A DNA stretch of 64,000 nucleotides from Eledone cirrhosa (Eukaryota), in contig OZ024752.1 of NCBI GenBank assembly GCA_964016885.1, positions 6,572,001 to 6,636,000 of the forward strand, written 5' to 3'. Below, piece after piece: positions 14,973 to 56,735 of this stretch. The notes beneath the pieces were generated by a model. That model did no database searches and was not told where the DNA came from. It saw nothing but the letters and a program-made list of their open reading frames with translations. A program made the position numbers and the translations under genes. Within the stretch, counting starts at the first letter, position 1. Each line of letters opens with the position of its first letter.

Positions 14973-16960
14973 CCCTTTACCATTTAAATTACTCTATATA
15001 TACTATTGTATTTTCACAGTAAAGGCTTTACCTCACATAATATCTCGCATAACATTTACATTACTCTATATATACTATTGTATTTTCACAGTAAAGGCTT
15101 TACCTCACATAATATCTCACATAACATTTACATTACTCTATATATACTATTGTATTTTCACAGTAAAGGCTTTACCTCACATAATATCTCACATATTTAC
15201 ATTACTCTATATATACTATTGTATTTTCACAGTAAAGGCTTTACCTCACATAATATCTCACATAACATTTACATTACTCTATATATACTATTGTATTTTC
15301 ACAGTAAAGGCTTTACCTCACATAATATCTCACATAATATTTACATTACTCTATATATACTATTGTATTTTCACAGTAAAGGCTTTACCTCACATAATAT
15401 CTCACAACATTTACATTACTCTATATATACTATTGTATTTTCACAGTAAAGGCTTTACCTCACATAATATCTCACATAACATTTACATTACTCTATATAT
15501 ACTATTGTATTTTCACAGTAAAGGCTTTACCTCACATAATATCTCACATAACATTTACATTACTCTATATATACTATTGTATTTTCACAGTAAAGGCTTT
15601 ACCTCACATAATATCTCACATAATATTTACATTACTCTATATATACTATTGTATTTTCACAGTAAAGGCTTTACCTCACATAATATCTCACATAACATTT
15701 ACATTACTCTATATATACTATTGTATTTTCACAGTAAAGGCTTTACCTCACATAATATCTCACATAACATTTACATTACTCTATATCTACTATTGTATTT
15801 TCACAGTAAAGGCTTTACCTCACATAATATCTCACGTAACATTTACATTACTCTATATATACTATTGTATTTTCACAGTAAAGGCTTTACCTCACATAAT
15901 ATCTCACATAACATTTACATTACTCTATATATACTATTGTATTTTCACAGTAAAGGCTTTACCTCACATAATATCTCACATAACATTTACATTATTCTAT
16001 ATATACTATTGTATTTTCACAGTAAAGGCTTTACCTCACATAATATCTCACATAACATTTACATTACTCTATATATACTATTGTATTTTCACAGTAAAGG
16101 CTTTACCTCACATAATATCTCACATAACATTTACATTACTCTATATATACTATTGTATTTTCACAGTAAAGGCTTTACCTCACATAATATCTCACATAAC
16201 ATTTACATTACTCTATATATACTATTGTATTTTCACAGTAAAGGCTTTACCTCACATAATATCTCACATAACATTTACATTACTCTATATATACTATTGT
16301 ATTTTCACAGTAAAGGCTTTACCTCACATAATATCTCACATAATATTTACATTACTCTATATATACTATTGTATTTTCACAGTAAAGGCTTTACCTCACA
16401 TAATATCTCACATAACATTTACATTACTCATATACTATTGTATTTTCACAGTAAAGGCTTTACCTCACATAATATCTCACATAACATTTACATTACTCTA
16501 TATCTACTATTGTATTTTCACAGTAAAGGCTTTACCTCACATAATATCTCACGTAACATTTACATTACTCTATATATACTATTGTATTTTCACAGTAAAG
16601 GCTTTACCTCACATAATATCTCACATAACATTTACATTATTCTATATATACTATTGTATTGTCACAGTAAAGGCTCTATCTCACATAACATTTACATTAT
16701 TCTATATATACTATTGTATTGTCACAGTAAAGGCTTTACCTCACATAATATCTCACATAACATTTACATTATTCTATATATGCTATTGTATTGTCACAGT
16801 AAAGGCTCTATCTCACATAATATCGTATCTATGAGATTTTGATATCATTTATTTTGAGAACAATACCTTAACATCAGTATGAGCAGCCAGTTATGGCCTG
16901 TTTGAACAGAAAGAGGTGAGAGAATTCTGGCAGGATATGGCTGGTTTAAATGCTAAAGGG
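14973..16960. mobile_element. Complete MITE-A carrying about 25 copies of a 72-bp satellite unit
   Basis: TTAA|CCCTTTACCATTTA ... TAAATGCTAAAGGG|TTAA, 14-bp TIR with one mismatch; array about 14985-16820. Confidence 0.92.
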
Positions 16961-23619: not shown

Positions 23620-23790
23620 TGGAATGATAGGGACCCCAGTCCCCATCATCTCATTTCTACAGCTGAGTAAACTGGAGCAATGTGAAATAAAGTGTCTTGC
23701 TCAAGGAAACAACACATCACCCGGTCTGAGAATTGAACTCACAACCTTTCGATTGCAAGCCCAATGCTCTAACCACTAAGCCATGTGCCT
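23620..23790 (-). mobile_element. SINE-2 (tRNA-derived, CORE-like domain)
   Basis: Minus strand ggcacatggcttagtggttagagc (A box)...gagttcaattc (B box)...ccttgagcaagacacttta...gtttactcagctgtagaaatg; near-identical to 61922-62085. Confidence 0.85.
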
Positions 23791-36536: not shown

Positions 36537-37405
36537 CAGGGTGTGGACGATATTTGTTCGTAATTTTCAACTGCTAATTTTATGTCACATTTTTTTACTT
36601 CTGTTGTCACTCTTGTCTTCATAAAAACTGTGACTATATTTCCATTATTTATTTTCAGAATAATTGATTATGAATAAATTTGAACCTCCAAATTTGTGGA
36701 ATCCGTGCTGGGAGGACAAATAAGACCAGAAGATCAACTCCCAGAACAACAGGTGGCTCGCTGTCTCATCCAAAGACGTACCCAGACTCATGCAGACAAA
36801 GTTTCCAGCGACAACATTGGTCTTAGGTGTCATCAGCAGTCAAGGTGACGTCATGCCACCTCACTTCTTCCCTGAGGGCCTCAAGCTGAACACCGATTGC
36901 TACATCCGCGTTCTGAGCGAGGTAGTAAAGCCCTGGATCGATCAGGTAGCTGCAGGTAGGCCGTACGTGTGGCAGCAAGACTCAGCACCCTGCCATACCA
37001 GCCGAAAGACCCAAGCCTGGCTGTCAGAGAACTTCGTCGACCACACTTCACCTGACATCTGGCCTCCCAGCTCGCCTGACTGCAACCCCCTCGACTTCTT
37101 TGTGTGGGGCGCAGTGGAACGAGACACCAACAGATCTAGCTGCAATATGAAAGACGATGTGAAGGCCAGGATCACAAGTGCTTTTAGGGCCCTAAGTCAG
37201 GGGACAGTGACAAAGGCCTGTAGCCGGTTCCGTGGTTGCCTTGAGGCCGTCATCAAAGCCAATGGTGGGTTTATCAAGTGAGAGCGAAAGAGCAAGTCAT
37301 GAAGAGAAACTGACCCAAGTTTGATAAATAAATCTTAAAAAATAAAACTACTGTGTTATTTTTTCCTAGACAGTAATCTTGCGAACAAATATCGTCCGCA
37401 CCCTG
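36537..37405 (+). mobile_element. Internally deleted Tc1/mariner element of DD37D (maT) type, 869 bp
   Basis: TA|cagggtgtggacgatatttgttcgtaa ... ttgcgaacaaatatcgtccgcaccctg|TA; 27-bp TIRs with 2 mismatches; TA target duplication. Confidence 0.93.
36724..37281 (+). pseudogene. C-terminal half of a DD37D transposase (DNA-binding domain and first catalytic Asp deleted)
   Basis: WQQDSAPCH ... WPPSSPDCNPLDFFVW with 37 residues between the 2nd and 3rd Asp; the frame is open upstream to DQKINSQNNRW. Confidence 0.9.
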
Positions 37406-42703: not shown

Positions 42704-43314
42704 CTGTAGAAATACTGATAGAAAAACACAAAAACAAATAACACACAGATTGAAATTCCAACAAAGAAATTGAAAGACAGGTAAAAATTGTAAGAAATTA
42801 GCAAATAAGTAGCTAAATCTATGGTAAACATATACAACATTAGCTGACAATATCTTTTAATGTCCATTTTGCCACCCTGTAACATGATATATATATATAT
42901 ATAATCATCATCAATTAATGTCTGTCTTCCATGCTAGCATGGGTTAGATGAGTTTGTCCTATTTAGAGGCAAGTTGGGTCGGGTGACCGTGGTCTCACTC
43001 ATATCATCATCATCATCGTTTAACGTCCATCTTCCACACTTGCATGGGTTTGGACGGGAGTTTTCCCACTTGAGGCAAGATTGGTTGTCTTGCTCGCATA
43101 GGACTGTCTGGCGGGTTTTCTACGGCTGGATGCCCTTCCTAACACCAACCACGTTTACAGTGTGGACTGGGAGGTTTTTACCGTGTTACCTACACGGCAA
43201 CATTACAGCGTGGACTGTGTGTTTTTTTTTTTCATGACACCTACACAACCTCATTTGTTTCGGACTGGATGTTGTGGTACCAACATAACTTTACATCGAA
43301 AGGGGTGGTGTGGA

Positions 43315-43356
<42 letters not shown>

Positions 43357-43381
43357 GGTTACACAACAGTTAGTTCACCAT

Positions 43382-43424
43382 ACCGAGAACAATTGTTTCA
43401 CCTTATTCGGATCTTCAGCTCAGT
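43382..43424 (-). ncRNA. Minimal type I hammerhead ribozyme motif (left arm)
   Basis: ACTGAG-CTGAAGA-TCC-GAATAA-GGT-GAAAC-AATT-GTT-CTCGGT. Confidence 0.7.
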
Positions 43425-43485
43425 CTAAATGAAGTTGTACGGGAAAGGAAAAACAACCCTTCCTTTTCCGTACAACTTCATTTAG

Positions 43486-43528
43486 ACCAAGCTGAAGATC
43501 CGAATAAGGTGAAACAATTGTTCTTTGT
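43486..43528 (+). ncRNA. Minimal type I hammerhead ribozyme motif (right arm)
   Basis: ACCAAG-CTGAAGA-TCC-GAATAA-GGT-GAAAC-AATT-GTT-CTTTGT. Confidence 0.68.
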
Positions 43529-43621
43529 ATGGTGAACTAACTGTTGTGGAACTACTTCTACCAAACTCGTCCCATGGACTGAGTGCTCTACTACTACGGA
43601 TATTACCCTCCAGTGTTCTAC

Positions 43622-43665
<44 letters not shown>

Positions 43666-53029: not shown

Positions 53030-56000
53030 CCCTTTAACATTTACATTACTCTATATATACTATTGTATTTTCACAGTAAAGGCTTTACCTCACATAATAT
53101 CTCACATAACATTTACATTACTCTATATATACTATTGTATTTTCACAGTAAAGTCTTTACCTCACATAATATCTCACATAACATTTACATTACTCTATAT
53201 ATACTATTGTATTTTCACAGTAAAGTCTTTACCTCACATAATATCTCACATAACATTTACATTACTCTATATATACTATTGTATTTTCACAGTAAAGGCT
53301 TTACCTCACATAATATCTCACATAACATTTACATTACTCTATATATGCTATTGTATTTTCACAGTAAAGTCTTTACCTCACATAATATCTCACATAACAT
53401 TTACATTACTCTATATATACTATTGTATTTTCACAGTAAAGGCTTTACCTCACATAATATCTCACATGACATTTACATTACTCTATATATGCTATTGGGA
53501 GCCTGGGTAGGGATCCTTTGAATAAGATCTGTCCGAGATGCGTGCATGATGACGAAACCGTTGCGCACGCATTCGTACACTGCCCAGGCATTGCTGACCT
53601 GTGGGGCTATGTGGAACGACTACTGTCGAGGGTGGGACCAATCCGGTTGACCACCGAGTCCATTGTCACGATCAAACCGCCTCCCCCTTTCAAAAACGAA
53701 GGAGAGGCGGTTTTTCTCTGTGTGGTAGCCATGGCTAAAGAAGTTGTATGGTGGACGAGGCTGAAAGGGCTGAGGTCAGACACCTTTCTCTCCGGCCAAC
53801 AACTGGTCCTCTTTTTCAAATACCATTTTAAAAGAAGGATCAGAATGGAGAGAGAGGTGCTCTACCCCAGCAAGTTTTATGAAAGGTGGGTGAAAGTAGG
53901 GAGAATGGCCAGAGTGAATGGGTCTTCGCTCTATATCAGCCTGTAGGTGAAAGAAGAGGAAAAAGAGGAGACGAGGGAAGCACCTACTCTTTGTGCTCCT
54001 GAGGAGAAGGGTTGCACATTTTTTCCGGGGTGTGTGTGACCCACGTTAATGCCCCCTCCCTATTGAGGACTTCGTTTGTTGTTGTTATTTCATTGTTATA
54101 TTTTTGTACTCGTTAATTATATGTAAACTTTCCCCTTTGTATCTGTCCTTACCTTTTGTGCCCTAGTGGCAAATAAAGAAACCACTCTATATATACTATT
54201 GTATTTTCACAGTAAAGGCTTTACCTCACATAATACCTCACATAACATTTACATTACTCTATATATACTATTGTATTTTCACAGTAAAGGCTTTACCCCA
54301 CATAATATCTCACATAACATTTACATTACTCTATATATACTATTGTATTTTCACAGTAAAGGCTTTACCTCACATAATACCTCACATAACATTTACATTA
54401 CTCTATATATACTATTGTATTTTCACAGTAAAGGCTTTACCCCACATAATATCTCACATAACATTTACATTACTCTATATATACTATTGTATTTTCACAG
54501 TAAAGGCTTTACCTCACATAATACCTCACATAACATTTACATTACTCTATATATACTATTGTATTTTCACAGTAAAGGCTTTACCTCACATAATACCTCA
54601 CATAACATTTACATTACTCTATATATACTATTGTATTTTCACAGTAAAGGCTTTACCTCACATAATATCTCACATAACATTTACATTACTCTATATATAC
54701 TATTGTATTTTCACAGTAAAGGCTTTACCTCACATAATACCTCACATAACATTTACATTACTCTATATATACTATTGTATTTTCACAGTAAAGGCTTTAC
54801 CTCACATAATACCTCACATAACATTTACATTACTCTATATATACTATTGTATTTTCACAGTAAAGACTTTACCTCACATAATATCTCACATAACATTTAC
54901 ATTACTCTATATATACTATTGTATTTTCACAGTAAAGGCTTTACCTCACATAATATCTCACATAACATTTACATTACTCTATATATACTATTGTATTTTC
55001 ACAGTAAAGGCTTTACCTCACATAATACCTCACATAACATTTACATTACTCTATATATACTATTGTATTTTCACAGTAAAGGCTTTACCTCACATAATAC
55101 CTCACATAACATTTACATTACTCTATATATACTATTGTATTTTCACAGTAAAGGCTTTACCTCACATAATACCTCACATAACATTTACATTACTCTATAT
55201 ATACTATTGTATTTTCACAGTAAAGACTTTACCTCACATAATACCTCACATAACATTTACATTACTCTATATATACTATTGTATTTTCACAGTAAAGACT
55301 TTACCTCACATAATACCTCACATAACATTTACATTACTCTATATATACTATTGTATTTTCACAGTAAAGGCTTTACCTCACATAATACCTCACATAACAT
55401 TTACATTACTCTATATATACTATTGTATTTTCACAGTAAAGACTTTACCTCACATAATACCTCACATAACATTTACATTACTCTATATTTACTATTGTAT
55501 TTTCACAGTAAAGACTTTACCTCACATACTATCTCACATAACATTTACATTACTCTATATATACTATTGTATTGTCACAGTAAAGTCTTTATCTCACATA
55601 ATACCTCACATAACATTTACATTACTCTATATTTACTATTGTATTTTCACAGTAAAGGCTTTACCTCACATAACATTTACATTACTCTATATTTACTATT
55701 GTATTTTCACAGTAAAGGCTTTACCTCACATAATATCTCACATAACATTTACATTACTCTATATATACTATTGTATTTTCACAGTAAAGGCTTTACCTCA
55801 CATAATATCTCACATAACATTTACATTACTCTCTATATACTATTGTATTTTCACAGTAAAGGCTTTACCTCACATAATATCTCACATAACATTTACATTA
55901 CTCTATATATACTATTGTATTTTCACAGTAAAGGCTTTACCTCACATAATATCTCACATAACATTTACATTACTCTCTATATACTATTGTATTTTCACAG

Positions 56001-56735
56001 TAAAGGCTTTACCTCACATAATATCTCACATAACATTTACATTACTCTATATATACTATTGTATTTTCACAGTAAAGGCTTTACCCCACATAATATCTCA
56101 CATAACATTTACATTACTCTATATATACTATTGTATTTTCACAGTAAAGGCTTTACCCCACATACTATCTCACATAACATTTACATTACTCTATATATAC
56201 TATTGTATTTTCACAGTAAAGGCTTTACCTCACATAATATCTCACATAACATTTACATTACTCTATATATACTATTGTATTTTCACAGTAAAGGCTTTAC
56301 CTCACATAATATCTCACATAACATTTACATTACTCTATATATACTATTGTATTTTCACAGTAAAGGCTTTACCCCACATACTATCTCACATACCATTTAC
56401 ATTACTCTATATATACTATTGTATTTTCACAGTAAAGGCTTTACCCCACATACTATCTCACATACCATTTACATTACTCTATATATACTATTGTATTTTC
56501 ACAGTAAAGGCTTTACCTCACATAACATTTACATTACTCTATATTTACTATTGTATTTTCACAGTAAAGGCTTTATCTTACTTAATTATTTCACATAATA
56601 TCGAATCTATGAGATTTTGATATCTATTTTGAGAACAATACCTTAATGTAGGTATGAGTGGCTAGTTACAGCCGGTTTGAACAGAAAGAGGTGAGAGAAT
56701 TCTGGCCGGATATGAGCAGTTTAAATGTTAAATGG
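53030..56735. mobile_element. MITE-A with about 40 units of the 72-bp satellite and a LINE insertion; sits at a TTAA within another MITE-A fragment (52925-53029)
   Basis: TTAA|ccctttaacatttacattac ... ttaaatgttaaatgg|TTAA. Confidence 0.88.
53498..54183 (+). mobile_element. 5'-truncated Tx1/L1-type non-LTR retrotransposon (ORF2 C-terminus plus 3' UTR)
   Basis: CPRCVHDDETVAHAFVHC (CCHC zf-RVT-type finger), ...F...W motif and stop at 53946; 3' end aataaagaaacc; flanked by actctatatat(g/a)ctattg at 53480-53497 and 54184-54201. Confidence 0.85.

Follow-up and report, generated by a model that had tools for sequence, protein, structure and literature searches.

The palindrome in the window (the whole 64-kb stretch of DNA analysed) is real and is explained, in mostly known terms, as the footprint of a Penelope-type element. 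It is an insertion of 277 bp (43350–43626) with both ends abutting (TA)n, and consists of two 5′-truncated pLTRs of a Hydra-clade Penelope-like retrotransposon (PLE) placed head to head, with a 66-bp tail on the right arm only (Table 1). We regard it as very probable that the insertion is a single old event, apparently decaying without selection, in which two hammerhead-bearing arms, both cut short, lie head to head in (TA)n. Satellites and simple repeats make up the rest of the window.

Table 1. Features of the palindromic insertion and its target site, in window coordinates
Feature	Position	Strand	Basis
(TA)n microsatellite, left part of insertion site	43317..43351	.	direct reading; most Hydra-clade families are listed as preferring (TA)n for insertion
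Left arm: 5′-truncated pLTR, short 3′ end without tail	43350..43457	-	94% match to natural copy L007, 79-186
Left-arm type I hammerhead motif; stem I of 6 bp with one U-G; predicted cleavage after 43388	43382..43424	-	Rfam Hammerhead_1, 20.2 bits, E=0.019, below gathering score
Left-arm 3′ end: both bases diagnostic of sister subfamily B, attached to a body of subfamily A	43350..43361	-	sequence comparison
Head-to-head junction (hairpin loop); recurrent junction zone adjoining the element's short GTAC...GTAC inverted repeat	43451..43459	.	
Right arm: 5′-truncated pLTR	43460..43560	+	arm plus tail, 96% match to L007, 86-252
Right-arm hammerhead motif: core intact, stem I damaged (A-U swap, C x U mismatch); predicted cleavage after 43522	43486..43528	+	
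66-bp tail; folds into two small stem-loops	43561..43626	+	lies between 5′ pLTR and ORF in L061, L062
(TA)n microsatellite, right part of insertion site	43625..43659	.	direct reading

The insertion and its element family

An initial annotation of this DNA had described a palindrome of two outward-facing hammerheads at 43362–43548. Its inverted arms, 43362–43450 and 43460–43548, are separated by a 9-nt loop (84/89 identical); each bears an outward-facing hammerhead motif, and both contain the catalytic core CUGAAGA...GAAAC, the GUU site and an identical stem III, ACAATTGT. Direct comparison of the arms likewise agrees with the claim that four of their five differences (43443/43467, 43422/43488, 43421/43489, 43385/43525 and 43384/43526) fall in stem I. 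The placement of the arms thus stands, but the span given, 43362–43548, was too short, as homology reaches 43350 on the left and the tail reaches 43626 on the right. When homology is extended to 43350, the arms measure 101 nt and differ at 8 positions. No tandem array of hammerhead monomers was seen at the locus.

Perfect palindromes are a known class of artefact, and no single contig spans the whole stretch. The chance that the structure arose by fold-back during assembly or library preparation is nevertheless negligible, given that the arms differ at 8/101 sites, that only one carries a tail, and that dozens of other pairs have different junctions. In addition, a 66-nt Logan contig (run X1), possibly from the source sample and hence not independent, crosses the junction (43424–43489) with 0 differences. 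A segmental duplication joining the locus to L002/L063, 430 kb away, was ruled out on the basis of unshared flanks. The junction pattern common to these two loci was found nowhere else; similar junctions are seen again in L073 and L078, so a common origin of the window and L002/L063 junctions is unnecessary.

The link to Penelope-like elements proposed at the outset is borne out by near-full copies, by Hydra-clade motifs and by homology of the arms to the end of the coding element. The genome searched comprises 3.0 Gb. With one arm as query, 53 matched places were found among the 40 scored out of 1,864 candidates, and exact matches to two tight patterns numbered 483 and 612 (reversed controls, 0), such that the family has at least 612 copies. 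Longer copies continue upstream into an endonuclease ORF, and the arms map to the 3′ end of this coding element. Two near-full elements of ∼2.5–2.6 kb, L061 and L062, have the order 5′ pLTR with hammerhead, 66-bp tail, decayed RT-linker-EN ORF, 3′ pLTR with hammerhead, and (TA)n. Every ORF examined in the family is broken.

The available portions of PMC8557442 define the Hydra clade by RWK-like, DKT, CxCX5C, CxxC and CxH motifs, and describe elements of <3 kb with RT followed by a C-terminal EN, (TA)n targets and a hammerhead near the 3′ end. The present family resembles them in each respect: translations of L061 and L015 contain RWR, DKT, CSCRRPEAC, CGLC and CPH, the EN of L061/L062 is of the GIY-YIG type and C-terminal to the RT, and the elements are shorter than 3 kb. 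They also have pLTRs, an inverted 5′-truncated copy, a one-sided tail and a (TA)n target; an inverted 5′-truncated copy and a one-sided tail are typical features, according to the same text. The element protein is collinear by eye with Hydra-1_Obim from the supplement of PMC8557442, the closest family among those listed in the part available, and the ORF of L061/L062 is 39–41% identical to the intact protein P0001; RVT_1 and GIY-YIG clusters are among the Atlas neighbours of P0001. Neither the RT and EN portions of the ORF nor P0001 matched any Pfam family, and a PDB sequence search was likewise empty; hence, the clade assignment stands on motifs and by-eye collinearity rather than on a tree. 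Assignment to Naiad or Neptune was rejected because of domain order and motifs.

Since the hammerhead sequence differs from that of Hydra-1_Obim, we consider this a sister family, apparently uncatalogued within a comparison that covered the listings of PMC8557442. Its kinship with Hydra-1_Obim makes a cephalopod the likely host. The 66-bp tail of the family is longer than the 30–40 bp given for Hydra elements in the accessible text of that paper. Within the family, subfamily B comprises no fewer than 1,509 copies, counted as exact 22-mer matches, and differs from subfamily A in the upstream part of stem I and in the last bases. Copies of B (L094–L101) share the core, stem III and tail but not stem I, which contains a 2x2 internal loop, and look more uniform; one of them, L101, reaches 1.6 kb into the ORF and is 77% identical to L061.

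A non-LTR retrozyme was considered and ruled out, as tandem non-coding monomers are lacking and the arms map onto the 3′ end of a coding element. Animal retrozymes, as described in the portions of PMC7229834 and bioRxiv 10.64898/2026.07.22.740005 available, have hammerhead repeats related to PLE pLTRs, as here; unlike them, the window insertion is a truncation product of a coding element.

Stem I and the hammerhead motif

In the initial annotation, the differences in stem I were taken as a compensatory change that swaps one G-C pair for A-T. Two of the four differences do form a G-C to A-U swap; the other two give the left arm a U-G wobble and the right arm a C x U mismatch. The majority stem I in 94 aligned copies is ACCGAG/CTCGGT. 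Relative to this, the left arm has a single change, C>T within a CpG, which creates the wobble. Three changes mark the right arm, two of them CpG transitions at pairing partners (G>A and C>T) and the third a G>T that yields the C x U mismatch and thereby breaks the right stem I. Predicted pair probabilities in stem I are 0.74–0.88 for the left arm and 0.0 for the right, and predicted fold energies of the hammerhead are –3.9 kcal/mol (left), +2.3 (right) and –6.1 (typical copy). CpG sites mutate ∼3.5 times faster than other sites in the family, and both swapped positions lie in CpGs.

Could these differences still record selection for a working ribozyme in the window copy? One pair is formally swapped, and in the 94 copies the swapped pair co-occurs three times versus 0.64 expected (p=0.015). 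One caveat here is that the 94-copy set includes the window and is enriched for its best matches. The association is not reproduced across the genome, where the two changes show no linkage: 8/53 with the 3′ change (all pattern matches that have it) versus 10/89 without it (among the first 100 of the 612 matches listed; Fisher p=0.60). Moreover, L002/L069 has 3′ changes identical to those of the right arm without the partner change, and the neighbouring pair in the window copy is broken. In subfamily B, the inner 4 bp of stem I are kept and the outer part is paired differently, with no two-sided changes. True compensation is therefore very improbable; measured against the majority stem, the CpG bias, the absent linkage and the broken adjacent pair, the compensatory reading fails. 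Most likely, the differences in stem I reflect decay rather than repair, and the apparent compensation is chance mutation. More generally, when CpGs decay on both sides of a CCG/CGG stem, the result in a repeat copy can look like a compensated base pair.

A rare double change in stem I, CG>TT, occurs in 7/53 matches, in nearby locus pairs (G000:C12:6185723 and 6615486; C1:192161481 and 193558891; C7:72785096 and 72785160). Local hopping, conversion or tandem mutation are possible explanations.

Both arms have the CUGANGA and GAAA core segments and the NUH site of a type I hammerhead. Stem II consists of 2 bp flanked by U and U, and the G10.1-C11.1 closing pair is absent. An Rfam scan of the window at the gathering threshold returned no ribozyme; the left arm scored 20.2 bits against a gathering score of 34 for Hammerhead_1, and the right arm was unmatched. 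Matches to miRNA families at the E-value threshold were dismissed, as they merely reflect the hairpin. The U/U format of stem II occurs in published Hydra hammerheads, such that the missing G10.1-C11.1 pair lowers canonical membership only. Indeed, several hammerheads listed in the available part of PMC8557442 are likewise built as ctgaNgaT [stem II] Tgaa with a GUU or GUA cleavage site, although stem II in the comparable ones has 4 bp rather than the 2 bp seen here. Like the minimal metazoan PLE hammerheads in the accessible text of PMC4209133, those of the present family are of type I, lie in a pLTR, and have an extra nucleotide after A9 and a palindromic stem III, and most copies are solo and truncated. 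Unlike them, they lack G10.1-C11.1, have a short instead of a long stem II, and carry a non-palindromic stem III loop variant in 29/94 copies.

Among the inserted copies, the catalytic core decays at the same rate as the remaining sequence. Mutations affect 51/1220 core positions (4.2%) and 204/5441 other non-CpG positions (3.75%; p=0.46), compared to 78/561 CpG cells (13.9%), and the core is intact in 51/94 copies. Within the core, a common second allele is seen at N7 alone. Outside CpGs, common second alleles are confined to N7, loops I, II and III, and the 3′ end; their restriction to tolerant sites indicates selection on the hammerhead in source elements. Together with the PLE-typical position and the Hydra format, these alleles suggest that the hammerhead of the family is probably real. 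The 2-bp stem II, the missing G10.1-C11.1 pair, the sub-threshold Rfam score and the non-palindromic stem III loop in 29/94 copies speak against activity. The hammerhead would have been selected in active source elements rather than in the window copy. In those elements, it probably served to process tandem transcripts, acting as a dimer or aided by protein. The portions of PMC4209133 and PMC11167929 available describe PLE hammerheads as weak in vitro and possibly dependent on dimers or protein, and dimer cleavage has been attributed to Lunse et al. in the available text of PMC6765202.

One-sided tails and the origin of the palindrome

Similar palindromic copies are common in the family. Loci from the top 30 of each DNA search, a set enriched for look-alikes, contain 29 distinct head-to-head pairs and one tail-to-tail case. 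Exactly one tail is present in 27/29 pairs and two tails in 0/29; the tail-less pairs are L011, which is diverged, and a pair made with a third copy in L078. Further pairs in L094–L110 are one-tailed in 9/9 cases (L097/L098 counted once), which brings the total to 36/38 with no two-tailed pair. The tail-less arm of L033 is cut short. Among the first 100 of the 612 matches listed, an unselected list, there are 4 opposite-strand pairs; with about half of the arms matching the pattern (46/94), this suggests, as a rough estimate, that the subfamily holds roughly 100 or more palindromes.

Junctions vary in position, cluster near the short inverted repeat of the element and often show small overlaps (e.g. 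6 nt in L090–L093). The two arms of a pair share the N7 state in 24/29 cases (36% expected), and divergence is 8.1% within pairs versus 11.5% between pairs. These data indicate that most pairs are single events. In 19/24 informative pairs, the tail-less arm is the one that reaches further 5′ (p=0.007). The near-full elements show a corresponding asymmetry, with the tail after the 5′ pLTR only and the 3′ pLTR ending at the short site. In the window, the left arm has an A body and a B end, and the right arm is A throughout. Such A-body/B-end mosaics are rare (3 versus 204 A-body/A-end exact matches), and another of the three, L108, is also a palindrome, with the A end on the opposite arm.

Opposite-strand hammerhead pairs, in the form of dual motifs ∼100–700 bp apart, are already published in the available portion of PMC4209133, and inverted pLTRs with one-sided tails in those of PMC3846280 and PMC8557442. 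The Adineta vaga Penelopes, as described in PMC3846280 in the part accessible, resemble the present family in their head-to-head inverted pLTRs, tail on one pLTR and junction palindromes. The explanation given for those elements is self-priming, with an antisense template; in the present family, two priming events account better for the tail placement and the mosaic ends.

We consider formation by two separate priming events on the strands of the cut target most likely. A cut in (TA)n would allow each target strand to prime reverse transcription separately: synthesis of one cDNA would begin at the short end, where the 3′ pLTR stops, and that of the other at the distal tail end. In both cases the template would be RNA left uncleaved by the hammerhead; the two ends of the insertion lie 38 and 104 nt downstream of the predicted cut, which points to uncleaved templates, as in the Poseidon assay. 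The two cDNAs would then halt early and be joined head to head near short inverted microhomologies. In vitro, Poseidon uses two RT start sites, one at either end of the tail, and extends both strands of the target with the RNA uncleaved, according to the available text of PMC11167929. This element, from Anolis, also resembles the present family in its AT-rich target and in that hammerhead cleavage is unneeded; for our family, we infer the use of both strands and of two start sites. Poseidon belongs to another clade, and shows no strand preference for the start site in vitro, as far as the same text describes it, in contrast to the strictly one-tailed genomic pairs.

The competing account is fold-back self-priming on one template, with the tail lost from one arm during endonuclease resolution and the mosaic ends produced by later gene conversion. 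It fits the common subfamily states that arms usually have and the many junctions with short overlaps, such as the 6 nt of L090–L093; moreover, fold-back has been proposed for Penelope head-to-head repeats in the accessible portion of PMC3846280, and the tail has been attributed to EN-mediated resolution in that of PMC8557442. However, the arm reaching further 5′ would be made first, and this is the arm without a tail in 19/24 cases; if the first-made arm lacks a tail, its copy can gain one only if the first arm is trimmed. A fold-back copy would also begin with identical arms, so the mosaic A/B ends favour separate priming: the two arms carry different subfamily ends in both the window and L108, and those of L069 and L021 differ at several linked diagnostic sites. 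The mosaic end in the window could, on the other hand, stem from gene conversion after insertion. On balance, fold-back self-priming seems to us rather unlikely, though by some way the least unlikely of the alternatives.

Separate priming, the reading we prefer, can be extended to a tentative general proposal, which we hold at somewhat below even chance: that Penelope-type palindromes are built by obligate asymmetric twin priming, with one short-end start and one tail-end start, sometimes on RNAs of different subfamilies. If so, the one-tail rule and the mosaic end would constitute a genomic argument against self-priming by fold-back, and the hairpins formed in this way could incidentally supply the small-RNA and editing pathways of the host. 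In the open literature searched, neither a strict one-tail rule nor twin priming of Penelope elements was found to be stated; PMC3846280 was the sole relevant paper on head-to-head self-priming among the matches listed, and a search on octopus hammerheads found only PMC8557442. Although the locus in itself is minor, one of many decayed stubs, the family provides a usable data set on how PLE inverted repeats and one-sided tails form, a point raised explicitly in the available part of PMC8557442, and the one-tail rule and mosaic ends offer a modest, testable lead on PLE integration.

Two other arrangements were seen among these loci. L033 has, at 1058–1490, a tail-to-tail arrangement beside a head-to-head pair, not seen at any other locus examined. 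In a third variant, six very short insertions (L102–L107) have an identical 10-nt junction sequence, which suggests a recurrent template switch or an untemplated join.

Predicted hairpin RNA and other features of the window

As the initial annotation pointed out, the antisense arm precedes the ribozyme in either direction of transcription, and a read-through RNA is predicted to bury the ribozyme in a hairpin. Predicted folding energies are –145 kcal/mol for the 187 nt originally described and approximately –167 kcal/mol for the whole insertion. A read-through transcript could thus form a hairpin of ∼100 bp, for which editing or dicing is conceivable.

It had further been suggested that the locus might act as a self-silencing switch. 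In its full form, this reading would have the switch under selection, with hairpin RNA that blocks folding of the ribozyme, feeds ADAR or Dicer and represses the family. In its favour, the hairpin is highly stable whichever strand is transcribed, and head-to-head pairs of this kind are common; moreover, Penelope families in Adineta yield antisense small RNAs, according to the available text of PMC3846280. Against this, the mismatch between the arms (7/87) equals the family mean of 8.1%, and the layout is the default product of insertion. An excess of A>G changes, the genomic footprint of editing, is absent from paired arms (13/1382 versus 14/810 in solo copies). No host gene was found among the 73 open stretches of the window, and the stub contains no ORF to silence. 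A selected switch is consequently improbable, and the idea is unsupported for a routine insertion product with average arm divergence; hairpin RNA from this locus would be a by-product.

Pfam, run on the 73 non-repetitive open stretches of the window, gave one weak hit only, to a retroelement zinc finger (zf-RVT). An open stretch of 185 aa at 36724–37281 (+) was blank in Pfam; it presumably resembles a fragment of a Tc1/mariner DDE transposase. At 23726–23783 (-), there is a tRNA-like match (31.2 bits) with the acceptor stem missing, probably the head of a SINE. A 72-bp satellite occurs in four arrays (277–771, 14981–16824, 53035–53497 and 54184–56598), the first inverted relative to the others, and the gap between two of them (∼53500–54180) contains the weak zf-RVT hit. 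Just to the left of the insertion, at 42915–43250, lie two adjacent copies of an apparent dispersed repeat that starts with (CAT)n, and similar sequence flanks L030.
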